From a virus, in IMG/VR virus record IMGVR_UViG_3300030117_005585, positions 1 to 64,000 of that record: a DNA stretch of 64,000 nt; one strand, written 5' to 3'. Positions within the stretch are counted from its first letter, which is position 1; every line of letters starts with the position of its first letter. Under the pieces are notes generated by a model, which saw only the letters and a program-made list of their open reading frames with translations, was not told the DNA's origin and ran no database searches. Position numbers and translations under genes: made by a program. This document shows, piece by piece, positions 3,946 through 61,933 of this stretch.

Positions 3946-5496
3946 CTACGAATTAAATTTACCTGTAGCGATTATTTCATCATCAGATTCTAACTGATAA
4001 CCTATACTATCTGTATTAACTTTAAGAAGCAGTGCAGAGCCAGCTTGTTGTATCTCTACAGCATCATGTTCCATATACTGTCCATTTATAAAGAAAACAA
4101 AATCCTGTTCATTTGTTGCATCCATACTAGTCGGTGAAGATGCTGTTACAGCGTTAAAACTAGCAGTTGCACCAGCTGTAATGGATGTTGATTTCTTAAC
4201 AAACTGTTTTCTGAGGTATGCAAATTTTTCAGATTGTGCAATTCCGTCTTCAGTTATACCGCCAGTAACAACTAATGAACCTGTTACCGTCACAGAGCCC
4301 GTCAACTGATGAGTATCATCTGTAGTATCACCAAATATAGTTGAACCACTTAGTGACTGATATGTAATATCTGTTACGGATGAGGATACAACGTAGTTTT
4401 CTGCAATTATATCACCTAATACCACCCAATCTGTATTCACTTGAGCTTTACCATCACCTCTTTGTGTTATTTCAAATGATGTGTCTCCAATATGTAGTGC
4501 ATTTGACATACTTACACTAGCAAATTGGACAGTGCTAGTCGTTTCTACAGGTTGTCCTATACTGAATGTGAAGTTTGTTGGAGAGGTTCCGTCAAAAGTA
4601 TCACCGCCTGCGATTGACATACCTGTTCCTGCAATAACCTGAAGAGGTTTTACTTCAGGTCTTAAATCTGCTTGCTGTACACTTATTCTCACATCCTTTT
4701 TATCGCCAGTCAAATCAGCTATATCAATACCTATACCGTCATTGATTACAATTCTCTTTGGAGTCAATTGCTTTTGTGTTGTTACTACTTTACTAAATTC
4801 TTCGGGTATAAGATAACCATTGAGAGTTACAGTAAAATTTGTTCTAATCAATCTTTCTGTATTTACTGATACCTCACTGGCATCGGTATAGTTATCTATT
4901 TGTGTTCTAAACTTAAACTTTCCATCTTCTCCCCAATACGAACCTTCTGAATATATTATGTGTTCAACAATTTTATTCATTTGCTCTATGTAAGTTGTCC
5001 ATACTATAAATTCATATTGTAATGTTATGTAATCAGGCACAGCCACACTGTATAACTCTTTTTGTTCATTCAATCCTTGCTGTACTGCAAATTTATCATA
5101 CCTATTCCTATCAGAATATTGTTTTTGAAAAGTATAATGTAGTTTTGGGTCTAAGGGATTCAGCTTATCTACTGCTAAATTTTGGTCTTTTTCAATCGAA
5201 GTTCTTTTAAATGCTATTAAAGGAGTTATAACTTGTTTTTTATTATCTACTAAGAAACCTCTTTTTTGAACCATACTCCACCTTTGTGGATTGGAATACA
5301 TTATCGGTACTTTTACCTGCTCACCGTTTTCCTCAACTGTGGGTTTAATAACATTATTGAAATAAAACATTATGGTTGAATCTATATCCATCAACCCTAT
5401 AGAAAAGTTTTTTACATCGTCATTGTTTCTAGACCTTAAAAGGCCCCTATTTAGTAACTTTCTTTTACTTCTTGGTATTGGTTTTTCACGAGCCAT
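3946..5496 (-). CDS. Tail completion/terminator protein (T4 gp15-like) with fibre-like C-terminal extension
   Basis: KVPIMYSNPQRW and TPLIAFKRTSI resemble gp15-family motifs; position follows the neck genes. The C-terminal SGSTIFGDTTDDTHQLTGS module is shared with the tail fibre. Confidence 0.6.
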   Translation of the reverse strand: MAREKPIPRSKRKLLNRGLLRSRNNDDVKNFSIGLMDIDSTIMFYFNNVIKPTVEENGEQVKVPIMYSNPQRWSMVQKRGFLVDNKKQVITPLIAFKRTSIEKDQNLAVDKLNPLDPKLHYTFQKQYSDRNRYDKFAVQQGLNEQKELYSVAVPDYITLQYEFIVWTTYIEQMNKIVEHIIYSEGSYWGEDGKFKFRTQIDNYTDASEVSVNTERLIRTNFTVTLNGYLIPEEFSKVVTTQKQLTPKRIVINDGIGIDIADLTGDKKDVRISVQQADLRPEVKPLQVIAGTGMSIAGGDTFDGTSPTNFTFSIGQPVETTSTVQFASVSMSNALHIGDTSFEITQRGDGKAQVNTDWVVLGDIIAENYVVSSSVTDITYQSLSGSTIFGDTTDDTHQLTGSVTVTGSLVVTGGITEDGIAQSEKFAYLRKQFVKKSTSITAGATASFNAVTASSPTSMDATNEQDFVFFINGQYMEHDAVEIQQAGSALLLKVNTDSIGYQLESDDEIIATGKFNS

Positions 5497-5984
5497 TATA
5501 TACTCCTAACTCTCTCTATTTGTACCGAGCTCTTTCTTACTAAAAATGCGGTTGCAACAACTGAATAGTTTTGGTCAAACATCCCACCAATTAACTGATT
5601 TTCATTTATTGAGCCCACTTCAAAATATCCATAGTTCCAATCTATTAAATCTCCCAACTCCAAAACCATACTAGCATCGATAAAAGATTGTCGTAAAAAT
5701 GAAAATGTTGCATTCTGATTATTACTCGCACCGAATTCGTCTTCATTGTAATCAAAGTCTTCTGCAGCAACGATACAATTCATTTGAACTCCATTTTTGT
5801 AAATCCTATTACCATTAGAAGCCTCACCATACATATTGGTTGCTGACTCCTGTAATGATGGTTTATAAATAACAACTTCTTGATTTATTAATCCATCCTT
5901 ATTATTTTGTTTGTCACCAACCAATTCTTTGGTTACTCTGGTTATAAGATTGATGTCTTTTTGAGGTAAAAATCTACCAGCCAT
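5496..5984 (-). CDS. Neck/head-closure protein (gp14-like)
   Basis: TNMYGEA and ELGDLIDWNYGYFEV motifs; synteny between gp13-like and gp15-like genes. Confidence 0.6.
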   Translation of the reverse strand: MAGRFLPQKDINLITRVTKELVGDKQNNKDGLINQEVVIYKPSLQESATNMYGEASNGNRIYKNGVQMNCIVAAEDFDYNEDEFGASNNQNATFSFLRQSFIDASMVLELGDLIDWNYGYFEVGSINENQLIGGMFDQNYSVVATAFLVRKSSVQIERVRSI

Positions 5985-52972: not shown

Positions 52973-53229
52973 TACTGTTGTTCTCCTCTAAAGTTATCTA
53001 ATTGTTTTATTATATTTTTTATTTCATCAAAGATTACACCTGTTTCATCATCAGATTCAAATGAACCTCTGTAATCTATTTTTTTCAAATCAAATTGAAT
53101 TTTTTCTACTGCTTCCATAAAATTTGAAACCCAATCTTCTAACATTTCTTGTTTGAGATTTAAATTCCATATCACATAACAAGATGTTAAAAACAGTAAG
53201 GTTACAATTGTAAAAGATACTTCTAACAT
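52972..53229 (-). CDS. Small membrane-anchored hypothetical protein
   Basis: N-terminal TM; IDYRGSFESDDETGVIF. Confidence 0.6.
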   Translation of the reverse strand: MLEVSFTIVTLLFLTSCYVIWNLNLKQEMLEDWVSNFMEAVEKIQFDLKKIDYRGSFESDDETGVIFDEIKNIIKQLDNFRGEQQ

Positions 53230-54005
53230 TACTTGGTTTCTCCAAAGAGTTCATCAAAAAGGTCTTGTGACTTAGAACTCAGTTTAGGTGATGGTTCAGA
53301 TTTCTTCTCTCCGTTAACCGCTTTCTTCATATTCGTAGTAAGGTTTGTATTATAGTCTTCATCTGCTCGTTTCCATTCGTCACCTTCGATGTGTGTTGCC
53401 ATCATATCGGCTTGATGAAGTATGTATGCTATATTGGATTTCAACGCCCAATCAGGATTGTAACTAAGGTAGTAGGTTTTATTTGCTTCCTCATACAAAC
53501 CATCAGTTAAACGTAATCCGATATATTCCCATTGTGTCATTGGAATACCGAAGTGATTTAAAAGAAAAATAGCTCGGTCGGTAACAGACATATATTGAAG
53601 TTTCGGATTGTGTTTGAATATCTCACCTCTATTCTTACGATGCCATTCGGAGTCTTGTGGTATATAATAATCTTCATCTAAATCACCAACCTTACCTAAG
53701 TCGTGATGCATAGCAGCGAAGATAAGTTCCTCATCGGTGAAGTTGATGGTGGCTCCATTTTTCTCCCACAGCTCTTTGATTTGAAGAGCTGAATCAACTA
53801 CATGCAACACATGCTCTACATAACCACCTACCATAGCATTGTGATAAGCTGCCTTACCACTGGCTGGTGCTACTGACATTCTATCTTCAAAGTAGACATA
53901 CATAGTCTTAAGCTTTTTTAATCTATCTCCTTCGAATGTATCTTCTATAAGTTTCATTAACTTATTCCAATTCTCTACTATTTGTTGTTCTGAAAGTTGT
54001 TTCAT
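53229..54005 (-). CDS. HD-domain phosphohydrolase (YhaM-like HD domain)
   Basis: APAS...HNA..GGYVEHV...HHDLGKVG...HQAD. Confidence 0.85.
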   Translation of the reverse strand: MKQLSEQQIVENWNKLMKLIEDTFEGDRLKKLKTMYVYFEDRMSVAPASGKAAYHNAMVGGYVEHVLHVVDSALQIKELWEKNGATINFTDEELIFAAMHHDLGKVGDLDEDYYIPQDSEWHRKNRGEIFKHNPKLQYMSVTDRAIFLLNHFGIPMTQWEYIGLRLTDGLYEEANKTYYLSYNPDWALKSNIAYILHQADMMATHIEGDEWKRADEDYNTNLTTNMKKAVNGEKKSEPSPKLSSKSQDLFDELFGETK

Positions 54006-54322
54006 CTTATTCTCCTAAAAGTATTTTTTACTAATTTAAATGGATATCTTCCTGGCACATAGCCGTTTGTTTTTTTGTTCCAATTAAGCATTTCTTTTTT
54101 GATTTTTTTACCCCAACCAATATATTCTAGTTCTTCTTTGGGTTGAAACTCCCACCATTGTGTTTCTATATCCTTAGCATCATTTAATATATTAAGCATC
54201 GCCACAGCTTTACTACCTATCTTACTTACTAAGTAAGCAGCATCTTCTTCGTTTGAAGCATAATATACTTCTTTATCTTCCTTAAAAGCCTCAGGTGTCC
54301 AACTCACAATGTATGGTTTCAT
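54002..54322 (-). CDS. Hypothetical protein
   Basis: 106-aa ORF coupled on both sides. Confidence 0.6.
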   Translation of the reverse strand: MKPYIVSWTPEAFKEDKEVYYASNEEDAAYLVSKIGSKAVAMLNILNDAKDIETQWWEFQPKEELEYIGWGKKIKKEMLNWNKKTNGYVPGRYPFKLVKNTFRRIR

Positions 54323-55660
54323 TTATCTAACCTCATAACCGCTTTTTGTTAATTTAATTGTTGGTTCTTCTCTAAGTCTATTTCTATAGATGTCAAAAGG
54401 TATTCCTCTACCCCAACCAAGATAATCCATAATTTGTTCTTTAGTTACCGAGCCAACTTTGTGAATGTAATTTAATATTTTGTTATAACCATCTGTATCT
54501 TTTTTTACTTTTTTGAATTTCTCTTCCGCTCTTACAAAATGACTATTATACTTTTTTATAATATTTTCCCACGAGTTTTCTTTTCCTAATTCTATACACC
54601 TATTGGAATATTCTTCTCTTAGATTTTCGTTATCTAACATCATATTCATCTTCTTTAGAAACTCTTCATCTTTATCAAAATAAATACCAGCATTCTCAGC
54701 ATACTGTGAATAGTAGTCAGCATTGTAGAATATATAAGGTACACCAACTGCCATACCATCAGAAGCAGAGTTAGCCCAACCCGTATGGTGTGATTGTCCA
54801 CACACACCAACCCAACATTTAGATAACTCTGTAAAGTAACCTTGTCTATCAAATTTTTTATTGTAGATATACTCTCTATCTATTGAGTCTGATAAAGGAA
54901 CCCATGCCGTAAAGTCTTTTCTCTGTTCCCATAATTTATCAATCTGTTGTAGAAACCAAGGATAACTTTTATAACTATTAGCCCTATGATTCCAAACTAT
55001 TATCTTTGGTTCTTTTTGTGGTTTCTTTCGTGGGCCTTCTACATTATCCCAACCACGTGGTAGTGGTTCTATCTTATCTTTCAATATCTCCACATCACTA
55101 TCTGGCAAGCAAGTCGGTGCGTTCTCTATTATAGTATCTTTCACTGCTTGTGAGTTAACACCACAACTGTTCATAGACATCAAACCAGCATAGTGCTGTC
55201 TAAGTAAACTAGCTTCATAACCAGTAGTCTTTGGTATTTCTATATATGCATCGTAACCAAATATTACAGGTCTGCAGTTAGTCAAATTTCTAAAATGATT
55301 CTCCAACTGTAATGTATGTTCTGGCAAATATGTATATAAAAAATCCCAATCTTTAGTTTTGAAATCAGTTATTTTAGATAACTGATAAGTATCAAAATGT
55401 TGTCTCATCTCATTTGGATATGTAGGTTGTTTGTAGATAATCTGTTCAGTATTTTCATATTGAAAGCCTGGCATAATTTCAGGAGTTAATACTACAAAAA
55501 ATATATCCGGCCTTAACTTTGTTAAATGTTTTAAAATGTTAGACATTATTATGTAGTAACTATCCTTAGTAAAATCTTTTTGAAAGGTTATATTAGGATA
55601 AACTAAACATCTAAAAGGATATTCTCTATCCTCATCGGTATCTTGAAAGAAGTTGTTCAT
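54323..55660 (-). CDS. GT-B fold glycosyltransferase (GT4-like)
   Basis: NSQAVK, IVWNHR...K, GWANSASDGMAVGVPYI and SWE; small C-terminal helical domain. Confidence 0.8.
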   Translation of the reverse strand: MNNFFQDTDEDREYPFRCLVYPNITFQKDFTKDSYYIIMSNILKHLTKLRPDIFFVVLTPEIMPGFQYENTEQIIYKQPTYPNEMRQHFDTYQLSKITDFKTKDWDFLYTYLPEHTLQLENHFRNLTNCRPVIFGYDAYIEIPKTTGYEASLLRQHYAGLMSMNSCGVNSQAVKDTIIENAPTCLPDSDVEILKDKIEPLPRGWDNVEGPRKKPQKEPKIIVWNHRANSYKSYPWFLQQIDKLWEQRKDFTAWVPLSDSIDREYIYNKKFDRQGYFTELSKCWVGVCGQSHHTGWANSASDGMAVGVPYIFYNADYYSQYAENAGIYFDKDEEFLKKMNMMLDNENLREEYSNRCIELGKENSWENIIKKYNSHFVRAEEKFKKVKKDTDGYNKILNYIHKVGSVTKEQIMDYLGWGRGIPFDIYRNRLREEPTIKLTKSGYEVR

Positions 55661-56928
55661 TATTTAATTTCGAGAGGATTTTTAGAATTTATAACTACTT
55701 TACCACTTGACTTTTCATACCATTCTCCAACTAAAATTTTAGATGTTGGATTATGATATAAAGCAGGCAAACCCATTTTACAACCTCTCCATTTTCCACC
55801 GACAGGTCTCCAATCTTCTTTTTTTACATATGCTAAAATTACTACTACTCTATCAACATTATCTTCATAACCAATAAATACTGTCCAAGCATCTCTTTCA
55901 GTATCAGCGCCTGTTGAAAATTTGGTTAGAGAGGGGTTATCAGTAATTTTACTTGCTTTAATTTCCATAGAATCGAAAAACAGAGGAAAGAACCAATCTG
56001 GATCATTTACTGATGTTGATGTTTCAACTTTTAAATTAGGGTTTACCATCTCTATACATTCCCCACCAATAATCATAAATTGGTCGGATACTAATCCACT
56101 TCTTGTTTTTGTTTCAAGTTTTGGGCCAGGTGTAATAATTTTCTTCTTACCATTGTGAGCCAATCCAATTTCTATTTTATCATGTTGATGAATATAATTT
56201 CTAACAGCAATACAAGTCATTAAAGCCATTTCTGTAGTATATATACTCTCAAAATCAGTATTTCCTTGATATTGTGGAGTATTAACTTTTTTTGGAGTTG
56301 GTGGAAATAACAAATCAAAAGCTTTTGAATATTTCATACCATCATCTATTTTTTTTAAATATGTCTGCCCCTGATTATGTTTACCAATTCTCCAAAGCTT
56401 TTTTATATAAGTCAAAGATTTATTAGAATCATCTTTCCATAAATAGTCATAAATTGATTCAATATTTATTTTATCTTTTCCTTTTACTAATCTCATTTTT
56501 TCATGTACTAACTTTATCTGATTAAAAGTTCTAACTGCACTGTCTTTACGAACTCTTGAAGCTGCTTCCAACACTTGAATTGCATTTAAAGGATCGCTTA
56601 AATCTAAGTCAGTTTCATATTCAGTAATCTTCATCCAATTATGATCTTCGCCGGTATCCTTATCAATACCATTATGAAAACTATCTCTTGTTTCTTTCTT
56701 CTCAAACCACCTAGTATGGCCAGAAACCACAGTTCCAGCAGGATAAGGACCATTTTTCTTTTTCAAAACTGATGGTGGATGTATTAAACCAACTCCATTG
56801 TCAATTGTTTCTGATATATGTTGCGTATCATACTCATTACTTTGCCAATCGTCATTCAATGCGTGTTTCTTTAGAGAATCTATATGTGCATATAAAACAC
56901 CGTCTATAACTTTTGTTTCGTATTTCAT
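55660..56928 (-). CDS. ParB/Srx-like N-terminal domain fused to a PD-(D/E)xK endonuclease-like domain
   Basis: IDSLKKHALN...GLIHPPSV...VVSGHTRW (ParB-like GxxR); C-terminal NDPDW...MEIKAS. Confidence 0.55.
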   Translation of the reverse strand: MKYETKVIDGVLYAHIDSLKKHALNDDWQSNEYDTQHISETIDNGVGLIHPPSVLKKKNGPYPAGTVVSGHTRWFEKKETRDSFHNGIDKDTGEDHNWMKITEYETDLDLSDPLNAIQVLEAASRVRKDSAVRTFNQIKLVHEKMRLVKGKDKINIESIYDYLWKDDSNKSLTYIKKLWRIGKHNQGQTYLKKIDDGMKYSKAFDLLFPPTPKKVNTPQYQGNTDFESIYTTEMALMTCIAVRNYIHQHDKIEIGLAHNGKKKIITPGPKLETKTRSGLVSDQFMIIGGECIEMVNPNLKVETSTSVNDPDWFFPLFFDSMEIKASKITDNPSLTKFSTGADTERDAWTVFIGYEDNVDRVVVILAYVKKEDWRPVGGKWRGCKMGLPALYHNPTSKILVGEWYEKSSGKVVINSKNPLEIK

Positions 56929-56949: not shown

Positions 56950-58143
56950 TTATCTACCTACTTCTGATAGGTACATTTCTTTAGTTTCTTCCCAAGTCTT
57001 TCCTACGATATCTCCGTAGAAAAGTTTTTCAGGCTTCAATCTATTTTCGTCAAATAATTTACTGTATCTTCTGATAGCTTTAGGTTTCCACCAATTAATA
57101 ATGTAATCGCTATCATCACTATACTTTTTCTTCATCTTCAAATCTTTTTCTTCTATCTCTCCACGCAAAAACTCTCTACCATTTTCATATATGTCAGCGT
57201 AGAAGATACCTCTTTTAAATCCATGTTGGTAATCAGAACCCTTCACACCAACTGCTTTAAAAATCATATTAATTGTTTTTTGTTTCACACCTGTAGGAGG
57301 ACCGGCAACCCCTTCTTTTTGAGTAGTTTGTCTAAGGTACTCATCTTTTTGGTTTTCTTTCAACCACTGATGCCATACATCATAAGTGGAATCATCAGGC
57401 TTCAGTGCTATTCTACCTTTAGACTCACCAAGTGTTTTCCAAAGTGGAATACTGTTATACATTGAGTGTATGCCGTATAGGGATGTGGTTGATGCTCCTA
57501 CTAAGGTCTGACCATAAGTCTCTTTCCAAGCATCTCTAACTACTGATGATGTTACGAAACAAGCCACCAACTTACCACCTAAGAAATTGAATCCCAATGG
57601 TTGAGCACAACATATCGTTGTACCTATGGAAGTATATTTAAGTTTACCATCTTTAAATTTATTTTCTTTTGTCCATCCAATATAGTTATCTCTGGCACCT
57701 AATGAAGTAACATCTGAACCCATACAAACAATTCCTAATATTTTGCCAGTTACTTTATCTTTCAAATAAAACTTTAGGTTTCTGCCAGGGTTAGCAGTAA
57801 ACTCCATAGTGTGAATCAACCTACGAACTAATGTCCACTCTTCATTGTGTTTAGCATTACCTTGTTCTGTCATTTCTAAGTAAGGTTCTAATGCTTCGAT
57901 TTCTTTTATGGTTTGTTCTTTATTATTTATATCAGTAGGTGTCCAAATAGACTTTTCTATCTTAGAGAACTGAGTTGCTTTCTGAGTCATAGAGTAAACA
58001 TCAGCATTAAACTCTTGCCATTTCTTATATAGTGTTTGTTCTTGTACAGACATAGACTTTAGAAAGTCTAAGTTATCGATAAACTTCTTGCGTTCAGCTT
58101 CGAAGTCAAATTGTGGCTCGTCAAAAAAATTGTTAAAACCCAT
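56950..58143 (-). CDS. DUF4338/DruA-like protein (Mom-like GNAT-fold candidate)
   Basis: PGRNLKFY, ILGIV.MGSDV, RDNYIGW, QPLGFNFLGGKL, WKETYG, TTSLYG, SMYN and WKTLGESKG. Confidence 0.75.
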   Translation of the reverse strand: MGFNNFFDEPQFDFEAERKKFIDNLDFLKSMSVQEQTLYKKWQEFNADVYSMTQKATQFSKIEKSIWTPTDINNKEQTIKEIEALEPYLEMTEQGNAKHNEEWTLVRRLIHTMEFTANPGRNLKFYLKDKVTGKILGIVCMGSDVTSLGARDNYIGWTKENKFKDGKLKYTSIGTTICCAQPLGFNFLGGKLVACFVTSSVVRDAWKETYGQTLVGASTTSLYGIHSMYNSIPLWKTLGESKGRIALKPDDSTYDVWHQWLKENQKDEYLRQTTQKEGVAGPPTGVKQKTINMIFKAVGVKGSDYQHGFKRGIFYADIYENGREFLRGEIEEKDLKMKKKYSDDSDYIINWWKPKAIRRYSKLFDENRLKPEKLFYGDIVGKTWEETKEMYLSEVGR

Positions 58144-58195
58144 TTTAATTCCTGTTAATTTTCAATAGTTAAATAGCCTAGCTGGCCAAAAGTTG

Positions 58196-58267
58196 AGCGG
58201 AGGGTAGGAGTCGAACCTACATCTCTTCTTTGGAAAAGAAGTGTGTTTCCTATAACACTTCCCCCGC
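58196..58267 (-). tRNA. tRNA-Gly(TCC), atypical (A8/U14), CCA not encoded
   Basis: GCGGGGG AA GTGT TATAGGAA ACAC A CTTCT TTTCCAA AGAAG AGAT GTAGG TTCGACT CCTAC CCTCCGC T. Full cloverleaf with U73 discriminator. Confidence 0.92.
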
Positions 58268-58310
58268 AATAATATATATATTTAAATTTCACCAAATACA
58301 AATATTTTTT
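58268..58310 (-). promoter_or_regulatory. Promoter class II driving tRNA-Gly and the downstream operon
   Basis: AAAAAATATTTGTAT-N17-TATATATTATT, ending immediately before the tRNA 5' G. Confidence 0.75.
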
Positions 58311-59001: not shown

Positions 59002-59514
59002 TTAGAAATCACCTGGCGCTACCTGAAATGTATTTAGTCCTAAATCTCTCCACATTTTGACAACTTTATCTCTGTCATCTACAACAAGAAATACATCATC
59101 AATATCTACAAAAGCATCTAACATTTTTCTTTTCAAAATTTCATCAGGTGCGAATCTCCAATTTGAAACTGCGGGATTACCGGCAGCTACAGGAAAATCA
59201 TCCTTCTGATATTTGTCTGGTCTCATAACCAATAAGTCGTAAGGTACATCATTCCACTCTAACCATTCTTTTGTCCTATCAAACATTCTATCATTTCTGC
59301 CTGAAAATATAACAATCTTAAATCCATCTTGTTTGAACAACTGAGCCATTTTTATTACTGGCTCATTTGGTTCATCGAATGCTATATGGGCTGGATTGAA
59401 AAACTCATTCCAATTCATCTTACCATTTTTACCCATTTTGAGTGCATGGTCTCTTCGTCTATCTATGTTAGCCAGAGTACCATCTAAATCGAATATGACT
59501 GTATTTTTGTCCAT
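59002..59514 (-). CDS. HAD phosphatase (T4 PseT/PNK phosphatase-domain-like)
   Basis: FDLDGTLA, FSGR, LVMRP, D..K and VDDRDKVVKMWRDLG. Confidence 0.88.
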   Translation of the reverse strand: MDKNTVIFDLDGTLANIDRRRDHALKMGKNGKMNWNEFFNPAHIAFDEPNEPVIKMAQLFKQDGFKIVIFSGRNDRMFDRTKEWLEWNDVPYDLLVMRPDKYQKDDFPVAAGNPAVSNWRFAPDEILKRKMLDAFVDIDDVFLVVDDRDKVVKMWRDLGLNTFQVAPGDF

Positions 59515-60312: not shown

Positions 60313-60329
60313 TTTTTTCCTAAAGGTTG

Positions 60330-60738
60330 TGGAGCTGAGGGGAGTCGAACCCCTGTCCAAGTAGTTTTCTTCAATAAGTCATTTACAGCTTAGCTGGTTT
60401 CCATCGGTAGAAACCAGCAAACAACCATGTGGATTCCTTTTACTCAGAACATACCCTTTAACTGATATACTTTATACTCGCATATTAGAGTTGGTGTCTA
60501 ACTCATTTTATGACCGAGTGTTAGACAACTCAGTAACTTATGCAGCGTATGCGTAAGTTGGTTGGTCTTGATTATAAGCAACCATAGGTGAGTAATCATA
60601 CTCAGCTAAATGCCAATCAATTACCAACCCGTCTAGCGATTCATCGCCAATTAGGTTAGTTGAGTTTTATTTAAGAGTCTACTCAAACTCTGCTGCACTT
60701 AATTGTCAAATAACACCTGTCGAAACCATTACAGCCCC
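60330..60738 (-). ncRNA. ssrA: tmRNA (transfer-messenger RNA)
   Basis: 5' GGGGCTGTAATGGTTTCGAC; 3' GGGGTTCGACTCCCCTCAGCTCCA with G3-U Ala identity; internal tag ORF ending YAYAA-stop (60538-60648). Confidence 0.93.
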
Positions 60739-60986: not shown

Positions 60987-61307
60987 TTATGCGTCAAAAT
61001 GTTTCCAATTTTTTTCAAAATCATCAAATAGATTTTCTAACTTTTTATTCAACTTATTAGAGTCAATCGGATTAACTTCATTTCTTTTTAATTCAAGAGG
61101 TTTTGGATTTAACAGCGTAACTATTGCTGATAACCCTAACGCTTCCAAAATATTAATTGTAGGTAATCCAAATATATTTGGCATTAACCAATTCCAAAGT
61201 AAACATAATGGAATACTCAAAACCATACCAATCAGTAAAAATGAAATCAATGCTACCAACCCCAACTTTAGCATATCCCAATAAAATCCATACTTTAAAT
61301 TTATCAT
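60987..61307 (-). CDS. Membrane hypothetical protein
   Basis: Hydrophobic, LWNWLMP.IFGL motif; start refined to MINLKY, after GGAG. Confidence 0.7.
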   Translation of the reverse strand: MINLKYGFYWDMLKLGLVALISFLLIGMVLSIPLCLLWNWLMPNIFGLPTINILEALGLSAIVTLLNPKPLELKRNEVNPIDSNKLNKKLENLFDDFEKNWKHFDA

Positions 61308-61933
61308 TGTTTTATCTCCCAACCATCATTTAAAAACCTCTGTGATTTTTTGTACTTCAATACTTTTACAGCATCACCTTTTTTAATAGTAACTAATTGA
61401 TTACGACCAATCTTTTTTTCAGTTCTTTTAACTGTAGTTTCTATTCTTCTATCCATAATTAATTTACCATTTAGGTGATCTATTTCGTGTTGAACACAAA
61501 CTGCTTCTAATAGTCTTAACTCCTTATCATTCTTAGATTTCTCTTTATCTTCCCAGCTACCTGTACCAGTTTCACCTGTATCACATCCACTAAATATCCA
61601 ACCACTTTCCGATTGAGCAGTTTTAATCTCTACCGTTTCGTATCGCTTGGTATGTACTCCTTTGCCAGGAAAAGACAAACAACCCTCATAATAATTAATC
61701 TCATCCGTCTTCGATACAACCTTCGGATTGATGAGTACCAAAGGTTCACGAACATTGACAACGGCCACTTGTGCATCAATTCCCACTTGATTAGCTGCCA
61801 GCCCAATACCGTCTTTTCTTTCGTTAAGTATCGAAAATAATTTTGTTGCGATTTCCAATCCTTCTTCAACTGTAACCTCCTTGAGTTTCTTATGAATTAG
61901 AGGGTTATTATCTTTAGTACAATCTACAATCAC
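61304..61933 (-). CDS. def: Peptide deformylase
   Basis: GIGLAANQVG, EGCLS and QHEIDHLNG. Confidence 0.95.
   Translation of the reverse strand: MIVDCTKDNNPLIHKKLKEVTVEEGLEIATKLFSILNERKDGIGLAANQVGIDAQVAVVNVREPLVLINPKVVSKTDEINYYEGCLSFPGKGVHTKRYETVEIKTAQSESGWIFSGCDTGETGTGSWEDKEKSKNDKELRLLEAVCVQHEIDHLNGKLIMDRRIETTVKRTEKKIGRNQLVTIKKGDAVKVLKYKKSQRFLNDGWEIKQ

Follow-up and report, generated by a model that had tools for sequence, protein, structure and literature searches.

The contact between U8 and A14 is one of the most conserved in tRNA, and a tRNA-Gly gene of an ocean phage carries the two bases in reverse, as A8 and U14. From this swap and from the T stem, a sequence-only reading of the DNA had proposed that the tRNA can be charged with glycine but is diverted from ribosomes, or that it evades host tRNA-targeting nucleases. 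The locus raises the question of whether such a tRNA serves translation, another consumer of Gly-tRNAGly, or both. The window, by which we mean the whole stretch of DNA that was analysed (64,000 nt), is part of a 77.7-kb IMG/VR record of about 34% G+C with an estimated completeness of 42%. ARAGORN called tRNA-Gly(UCC) at 58195-58267 on the minus strand as the sole tRNA of this record, and Rfam RF00005 matched 58196-58267 with 60.4 bits, where the gathering score is 29 (Table 1). The gene thus folds into a cloverleaf whose four stems place it above the family threshold, yet the conserved tertiary bases U8 and A14 are absent. Among cultured phages, megablast of the region gave no match and blastn of the tRNA matched only the tRNA-Gly of Leptolyngbya phage Lbo-JY46.

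In the RF00005 alignment, the acceptor stem consists of G1-C72, C2-G71, G3-C70, G4-C69, G5.U68, G6-C67 and G7-C66, and is followed by A8, A9, a D stem GUGU/ACAC and the D loop U14 A15 U16 A17 G18 G19 A20 A21. The anticodon loop is UU-UCC-AA, the variable loop has four nucleotides (AGAU), and the T arm pairs G49-C65, U50-A64, A51-U63, G52-C62 and G53-C61 around the T loop UUCGACU, with U73 as the discriminator. Elsewhere the core is canonical (G18, G19, U54, U55, C56, A58). Both structural claims of the sequence-only reading, the exchange of U8/A14 for A8/U14 and the T-stem pairs U50-A64 and A51-U63, agree with this alignment, and the strand, which that reading had left out, is the minus strand. 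The GlyRS identity elements that it had described as intact (G1-C72, C2-G71, G3-C70, C35, C36, U73) are all present, and they are invariant across the family of relatives described below. The published bacterial glycine identity set comprises U73, G1-C72, C2-G71, C35, C36 and the G10-Y25:G45 triple (PMC9976931); this set and G3-C70 are complete in the tRNA and coincide with the family-invariant positions. From these identity elements we infer that the tRNA would be a substrate chargeable by bacterial GlyRS.

Table 1. Coordinates of the tRNA-Gly, its neighbours and the tRNAs with two apparently reversed pairs
Feature	Position	Strand	Details or basis
Promoter-like element	58273..58301	-	TTGTAT 58296-58301, 17-nt spacer, TATATA 58273-58278; G1 of the tRNA 6 nt downstream
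tRNA-Gly(UCC)	58196..58267	-	72 nt, CCA not encoded; A8 = 58260, U14 = 58254, anticodon = 58232-58234
Hairpin UGGCC-AGCUA-GGCUA	58174..58188	-	5 bp, just 3' of the tRNA, before the GNAT gene
DruA/DUF4338-family GNAT gene	56950..58143	-	Pfam PF14236, E 3.9e-25; starts 52 nt after U73
Four genes downstream of the GNAT gene	53229..56928	-	PHROGs and Pfam
Stand-alone PNKP-type HAD phosphatase domain	59002-59514	-	
One-piece tmRNA	60327-60738	-	Rfam 106 bits
Peptide deformylase	61304-61933	-	
Apparently doubly reversed tRNAs	L243:8469-8543, L236:12414-12488, L263:23-97, others		A8/U14 and A54/U58

Relatives were collected in two ways: with the neighbouring protein as bait, which gave 298 IMG/VR relatives, the longest contig measuring 178 kb, and with sequence patterns that left positions 8 and 14 free. 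The resulting sets overlap and comprise 19 distinct IMG/VR sequences (alignment A2) and at least 49 distinct marine-metagenome variants from at least 120 marine contigs, TARA contigs among them. Every true tRNA recovered among the relatives carries A8/U14. Positions 8-14 are A-U without variation in 19/19 sequences of alignment A2 and in all 49 metagenome variants among the matches listed, where two U8/A14 matches belong to a separate, canonical lineage. The stems do covary: in alignment A2, 98.9% of cells are paired and two-sided pair changes occur at 14 pairs, which none of 500 shuffles equalled. The 15-48 pair is A-U in 18/19 sequences. Invariant in the 19-sequence alignment are G1-3/C70-72, U73, C35, C36, G10-C25 and G45; invariant in the 49 metagenome variants among the matches listed are G1-G3/C70-C72, U73, C35, C36, U33, A37, G18, G19 and UUC. 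The compensatory stem changes together with the invariant A8/U14 and identity elements indicate that the gene is real and under selection, and they rule out a decaying gene. A sequencing error at positions 8 and 14 is also ruled out, since A8/U14 is invariant in the relatives and positions 58254 and 58260 are covered by marine metagenome contigs of separate studies (2014, 2025) with no listed difference.

Only one relative (L018) holds both kinds of tRNA-Gly gene, an A8/U14 copy at 5568-5639 and, 1.3 kb upstream of it, a canonical tRNA-Gly(UCC) at 4188-4259. This A8/U14 copy has A18 and G55, having lost G18 and U55 at positions that are otherwise invariant, which may reflect either decay or covariation of the 18-55 contact. 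The loss beside a canonical copy suggests, from this single case, that the A8/U14 and canonical tRNA-Gly are redundant.

The A8/U14 pair is not confined to this family. The tRNA-Gly(UCC) of Lbo-JY46 reads A8 A9 GUGU U14 and stands in a tRNA array, with 15 tRNAs in its 6-kb locus, and the cultured Microbacterium phage Cece has a tRNA-Trp with A8/U14; a blastn search of cultured phages with one A8/U14 tRNA-Asp found no match. Among about 1,000 distinct tRNAs from unrelated IMG/VR arrays, a semi-random sample among the matches listed that gives no estimate of rarity, 30 further A8/U14 tRNAs were found, for Asp, Gly, His, Lys, Pro, Thr and Trp. They nearly always have purine 9, G10 and U13, and a GUGU D stem occurs in 23/30 of them, against 8% of canonical tRNAs. 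A54 is present in 8/30, seven of these with U58, so that the 54-58 pair is reversed too. Both reverse-Hoogsteen pairs thus seem to be reversed, with a T loop AUCGUUA, in phage tRNAs for Asp, Lys and His (Table 1). The sequence-only reading had taken the swap as a sign of non-proteinogenic use. This does not hold: A8/U14 recurs in large arrays for Asp, His, Lys, Pro, Thr and Trp and also in phages without Mom, the glycine-transferring enzyme discussed below, and a trait shared by phage tRNAs for at least seven amino acids is no mark of a non-ribosomal tRNA.

In prokaryotes, a glycine-specific pattern (A8-R9-G10..U13-U14) was searched in 185,579 species and yielded only seven real A8/U14 tRNA-Gly, none of them an ordinary chromosomal copy. 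Six of the 7 are on MAG contigs with dense arrays of 14-25 tRNAs, and the remaining one, a member of the phage family, comes from a contig of 7.5 kb that was assigned to the bin 'bacterium TMED198'. The MAG contigs (L282, L290, L291, L292, L294, L299) pack 14-25 tRNA genes within 8 kb or less; these arrays are from Myxococcota, Elusimicrobia and Lachnospiraceae, and many of their tRNAs have non-canonical 8/14 bases (A/A, G/G, A/U). As far as these searches reach, A8/U14 seems restricted to viruses and to dense tRNA arrays, and its absence from ordinary chromosomal tRNA-Gly suggests that selection particular to mobile elements is at work. Our literature search found no paper describing an 8-14 swap in phage tRNAs, which is not proof of absence. 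Engineered swaps have been described: U8A/A14U fails to restore LeuRS charging (PMC6614811) and TrmK methylation (PMC9801127), and a scan of yeast SUP4oc found U8-A14 replaceable by A8-G14 only (PMC4117946). Since the engineered swaps behave badly, the natural one would depend on its sequence context. Either A8 pairs with U14, or U14 pairs with A21 and makes a 5-bp D stem. Because A8, U14 and A21 are all invariant in the family, the U14-A21 pairing is indistinguishable there; of the 30 other A8/U14 tRNAs, 21 have a purine (A or G) at position 21 and 9 a pyrimidine (C or U).

The family's anticodon arm is of the decoding type. Its stem is 100% paired, its 7-nt loop has invariant U33 and A37, and positions 32 and 38 are always complementary (A-U in 10 and U-A in 9 of the 19 sequences, and one or the other in the metagenome variants listed too). 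The elbow is also kept, with G18 G19 and UUCGA invariant, and the loss of ribosome-related or elbow features seen in staphylococcal non-proteinogenic (NP) tRNAs is absent from the 19 IMG/VR and 49 listed metagenome variants. At position 34, 47 variants have U, 4 have A and none has C or G, and A34 is found on at least three backbones. The members with A34 (anticodon ACC) are L008:5867-5938, L020:1901-1972, L025, L097, L113 and four distinct metagenome variants, always with an A32...U38 loop; L021 is the same as L008 except for U34. The recurrent change from U34 to A34, with no C or G at this position, suggests selection on decoding. Glycine codons (n=1144) are GGU in 57.7%, GGA in 28.7%, GGC in 9.4% and GGG in 4.2% of cases. 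The proposal of a tRNA that is charged but diverted from ribosomes therefore stands in one part and not in the other: the identity elements are kept and relatives encode a consumer of Gly-tRNAGly (Mom), but the elbow and the decoding features are kept as well.

Affinity for EF-Tu was predicted from pairs 49-65, 50-64 and 51-63 with Table 2 of PMC3239215 (baseline -10.1 kcal/mol), whose values were measured with E. coli and Thermus EF-Tu, from which the host's EF-Tu may differ. The window tRNA-Gly (GC/UA/AU) is predicted at -9.4 kcal/mol, and the S. aureus NP tRNAs (AU/UA/AU) at -9.5 with the same model; for the latter, -9.6/-9.7 kcal/mol has been quoted, against a mean of -10.8 for bacterial tRNA-Gly (PMC7826273). 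As a control, 115 other (canonical) phage tRNA-Gly had a mean of -10.47 +/- 0.42, with only 3.5% at -9.5 or weaker, and the window tRNA-Gly is about 1 kcal/mol weaker than these in the model. These values predict that the window tRNA-Gly binds EF-Tu more weakly, though with a difference of about 1 kcal/mol it may still bind. The family mean is -9.76 for the IMG/VR sequences (n=17) and -9.56 for the metagenome variants among the matches listed (n=49); the range is -9.1 to -10.5, with about 12-30% of variants at -10.3 to -10.5, and pair 51-63 varies between A-U, U-A, G-C and A.C. A8/U14 tRNA-Gly outside the family have normal values (-9.9 to -11.2). By this model, a weak T stem is enriched in the family, is not fixed, and is independent of A8/U14. 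The weak EF-Tu T stem of the sequence-only reading is thus borne out for the window tRNA-Gly, which lies near the staphylococcal NP level, but not as a family trait, because A51-U63 is not conserved and family values extend to -10.5.

The tRNA stands at the head of a group of genes on the same strand (Table 1). In the promoter-like element upstream, all 11 aligned relatives have TTGTATTT and ATATATATTAT unchanged, and the flanking sequence varies. Given this conservation, the element is probably the tRNA's own promoter; a simple sigma-70 scan did not call it. The hairpin 3' of the tRNA keeps its stem and varies in its loop in the 11 relatives, with a compensatory change GACC..GGTT in one of them (L014). 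No terminator separates the tRNA from the GNAT gene, and a shared transcript is therefore probable. In 18 loci the GNAT gene follows the tRNA at a distance of 49-62 nt, but no tRNA is found upstream in 52/70 DruA-like loci, which counts against an obligate link, and none precedes the DruA-like gene of Pelagibacter phage Mosig. The genes downstream of the GNAT encode a 422-aa protein without a family match, a 445-aa protein with a weak glycosyltransferase match, a 106-aa ORF and a 258-aa HD-type phosphohydrolase. Judged by spacing alone, the tRNA, the GNAT and these genes would constitute one operon. In the one metatranscriptome run, coverage was of two pieces of the GNAT gene only. The tRNA-Gly is the sole tRNA in each of two close relatives, G001 (165 kb) and G005, and in L046, L274 and L298 it stands within an Ala-Cys-Gly array.

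On the other side of the tRNA, the window encodes a tmRNA, placed by ARAGORN at 60329-60738 with the predicted tag EYDYSPMVAYNQDQPTYAYAA; L004 and L005 have a tmRNA as well, and the region further holds a PNKP-type phosphatase domain and a peptide deformylase (Table 1). The tRNA, tmRNA, phosphatase and deformylase form a small translation and RNA-repair gene cluster. RNA ligase (PF09511, PF09414) and CCA-adding enzyme (PF01743) had no match in the 77.7-kb record, a result that is uninformative given a completeness of 42% and a PF09511 control that was missed too.

A known phage consumer of Gly-tRNAGly is Mom of phage Mu, a GNAT that moves glycine from Gly-tRNAGly to adenine N6 in dsDNA (PMC13219725). 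It works with all three E. coli tRNA-Gly isoacceptors, probably recognizing them via the acceptor end, and the same report does not mention phage tRNA genes (PMC13219725). That Mu Mom accepts every host isoacceptor means that no special tRNA is needed, which argues against a donor role. Mom-family genes (PF25680, E about 1e-45) are present in relatives, three in G001, three in G027 and two in G003, these being the only family-bearing contigs that extend more than 40 kb upstream of the tRNA. They lie 40-80 kb from the tRNA, and the paralogs keep counterparts of Mu H58/Y59, R111, S124 and D149 (alignment A5). PF25680 had no match in shorter family fragments, including the 77.7-kb record (42% complete); judging from the relatives, the window's own phage would have Mom genes too.

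The AlphaFold model of the GNAT next to the tRNA (pLDDT 85) has Mu Mom 8bv8 as its best fold match (Foldseek E 1.6e-3; Z 10.3 over 164 residues), nearly tied by AAC(6')-Ib (Z 10.2). At the sequence level, PDB hmmsearch, hhalign against Mu Mom and hhalign against a 9-sequence Mom alignment (hhalign E 0.12) all failed to connect the DruA-like GNAT with Mom, and the Pfam assignment is DruA, not Mom. In this predicted model, the DruA-like GNAT is no nearer in fold to Mom than to generic acetyltransferases. FemAB, Acetyltransf_6 and LPG_synthase_C had no match in G000, G001 and G005.

Any tRNA within 10 kb was found at only 3/80 Mom loci, which likewise speaks against an obligate link. That A8/U14 tracks Mom was considered and rejected, as a Mom match occurred in 1/15 unrelated A8/U14-tRNA records and that one has stop codons. 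Two Mom-bearing marine phages (L470:19357-19429, L496:19835-19907) carry a Gly-like A8/U14 tRNA with the same acceptor stem as the family, a 6-nt anticodon loop AUUCCA, encoded CCA and G50.U64 (T-stem model -8.1), each adjoining a canonical tRNA-Gly and about 9 kb from the Mom gene. Separately, a U8/A14 tRNA-Gly(UCC) with two anticodon-stem mismatches and a T arm GGUGG/CCAUC, very weak like those of L470 and L496, was seen in L125 and L132 (G004:C1:129692-129848), in a 40-tRNA relative and away from its main tRNA array.

We give an even chance to the reading that the A8/U14 tRNA-Gly can decode and feeds both translation and Mom-type DNA glycylation. It would be transcribed from its own conserved promoter, processed, given its CCA by the host and probably charged by host GlyRS, as one of a lineage with a reversed 8-14 pair (A8, purine 9, G10, U13, U14) that occurs in viruses and dense tRNA arrays. 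For the marine T4-like clade that keeps tRNA-Gly as its only tRNA, the main value would be a larger pool of Gly-tRNAGly. Ribosomes would draw on this pool at GGA and GGG, possibly at all GGN, and phage Mom-type GNATs may draw on it to place glycine onto adenine in DNA. The AU-rich T stem, with EF-Tu binding predicted about 1 kcal/mol weaker, would tilt the pool toward non-ribosomal use. A second account is possible, though we think it somewhat unlikely: the tRNA is an ordinary translational helper, which decodes GGA/GGG or all GGN or replaces a scarce, degraded or cleaved host tRNA-Gly, with the Mom genes and the neighbouring GNAT coincidental; its A8/U14 core may make it insensitive to recognition of U8 by the host, be it through s4U8 thiolation, through quality control or by a nuclease. 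The canonical elbow and anticodon arm, the covarying 32-38 pair, the restriction of position 34 to U or A, and the 33% share of GGA and GGG among 1144 glycine codons all fit it. The same type of A8/U14 tRNA-Gly also occurs in arrays of 14-25 tRNAs and in the complete Mom-less phages Lbo-JY46 and G007, the Ala-Cys-Gly array of L046, L274 and L298 indicates that the spot before the GNAT may be an old tRNA island, and cleavage-resistant phage tRNAs are already known (PMC10264068, PMC11464382, others). However, this account leaves unexplained why glycine is the sole tRNA kept in a clade with 2-3 Mom genes that consume Gly-tRNA, and why it has T stems of a weakness unusual in tRNA-Gly, and none of the nucleases in the published tRNase cases considered here targets tRNA-Gly or the 8-14 region.

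At the other extreme, the tRNA would be a dedicated non-ribosomal donor, charged, kept off ribosomes and serving only Mom-type or DruA-like GNATs, by analogy with the staphylococcal NP tRNA-Gly that serve Fem transferases. We consider this improbable. It draws on the predicted affinity of -9.4, similar to that of S. aureus NP1-3 (A49-U65/U50-A64/A51-U63, -9.5 to -9.7), on the probable co-transcription with the GNAT gene, on homologues in other Mom-bearing marine phages, namely Gly-like A8/U14 tRNAs whose anticodon loop has 6 nt and whose T stem is predicted at -8.1, and on the engineered U8A/A14U that cripples other tRNAs and the SUP4oc tolerance of A8-G14 only. Against it, the decoding features are all under purifying selection with G18 G19 and UUC intact, T stems of normal strength (-10.3 to -10.5) occur in part of the family, the shift of about 1 kcal/mol is compatible with EF-Tu binding, the pattern at position 34 suggests selection on decoding, a role shared with the canonical tRNA-Gly(UCC) is suggested by their possible redundancy in L018, and Fem-type enzymes are among those not found in G000, G001 and G005. 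A bolder form, unlikely in our judgement though less so than the plain dedicated donor, makes the tRNA a private, insulated glycine carrier for the Mom paralogs, perhaps also for the DruA-like GNAT, with the reversed 8-14 (and 54-58) pairs marking an undescribed tRNA class; the reversed core and weak T stem together would bar s4U8 thiolation, EF-Tu and the ribosome, and tRNA nucleases, with GlyRS charging kept. Finally, a relic or an RNA-processing element, in which the tRNA acts at the operon mRNA's 5' end as an RNase P/Z signal or stabiliser and is no longer an amino acid carrier, would suit its place at the extreme 5' end of the transcription unit and the conserved hairpin after it. Such an element has no need of GlyRS identity, C35 C36, U33, A37 and the elbow, which are strictly conserved across more than 60 variants, and we regard it as extremely unlikely.

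Whichever role it has, a natural, strongly conserved tRNA that is abundant in ocean phages and has the reverse 8-14 pair means that a working alternative core exists, and dozens of natural A8/U14 variants are on hand for structural and biochemical study. As Mom has been shown to use Gly-tRNAGly, the clade with tRNA-Gly as its only tRNA and 2-3 Mom genes offers a direct test of virus-encoded amino acid donors for DNA hypermodification.

Among known systems, the NP tRNAs of S. aureus have lost G18 G19, whereas the elbow of the phage tRNA is intact, and the A8/U14 swap is not known as a trait of NP tRNAs. NP1-NP3, the donors for FmhB/FemA/FemB, and the phage tRNA have in common the glycine identity, the UCC anticodon, U50-A64 with A51-U63, and a predicted affinity of about -9.4 to -9.6, more than 1 kcal/mol below the tRNA-Gly norm (PMC7826273, PMC3239215). 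In both systems there is a GNAT-fold enzyme family that uses Gly-tRNAGly; on the phage side this would be the Mom family, present in relatives. The phage tRNA differs in having G49-C65 in place of A49-U65 and in weak pairs that are not conserved in its family; its consumer would modify DNA rather than peptidoglycan, and the phage record has no paired 'proteogenic' copy. Cleavage-resistant phage tRNAs, such as mycobacteriophage tRNAs whose anticodon loops are altered (PMC10264068) and the tRNA-Lys by which T5 neutralises PARIS (PMC11464382), are similar in being phage copies of a host tRNA species altered at otherwise conserved positions. Their changes are in the anticodon arm or variable loop, where nucleases cut, whereas the A8/U14 tRNA-Gly is changed in its structural core and no nuclease is implicated. 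A canonical T4-type tRNA-Gly(UCC) (L018:4188-4259) shares the anticodon, the identity elements, the 4-nt variable loop and the genomic neighbourhood; it has U8/A14, C9 and a 7-nt D loop, and is missing from most members of the A8/U14 clade. The likeness to Mu Mom (PMC13219725; bioRxiv 10.1101/2023.03.24.534169) lies in the relatives' PF25680 genes, which keep the R111, S124 and D149 counterparts, and in the glycine acceptor end of the phage tRNA (G1-C72, C2-G71, G3-C70, U73). The gene adjacent to the tRNA is of another GNAT family, DruA/DUF4338, with the relatives' Mom genes 40-80 kb off, and, unlike the phage clade with its tRNA-Gly, Mu has no tRNA gene of its own and can use every host isoacceptor.
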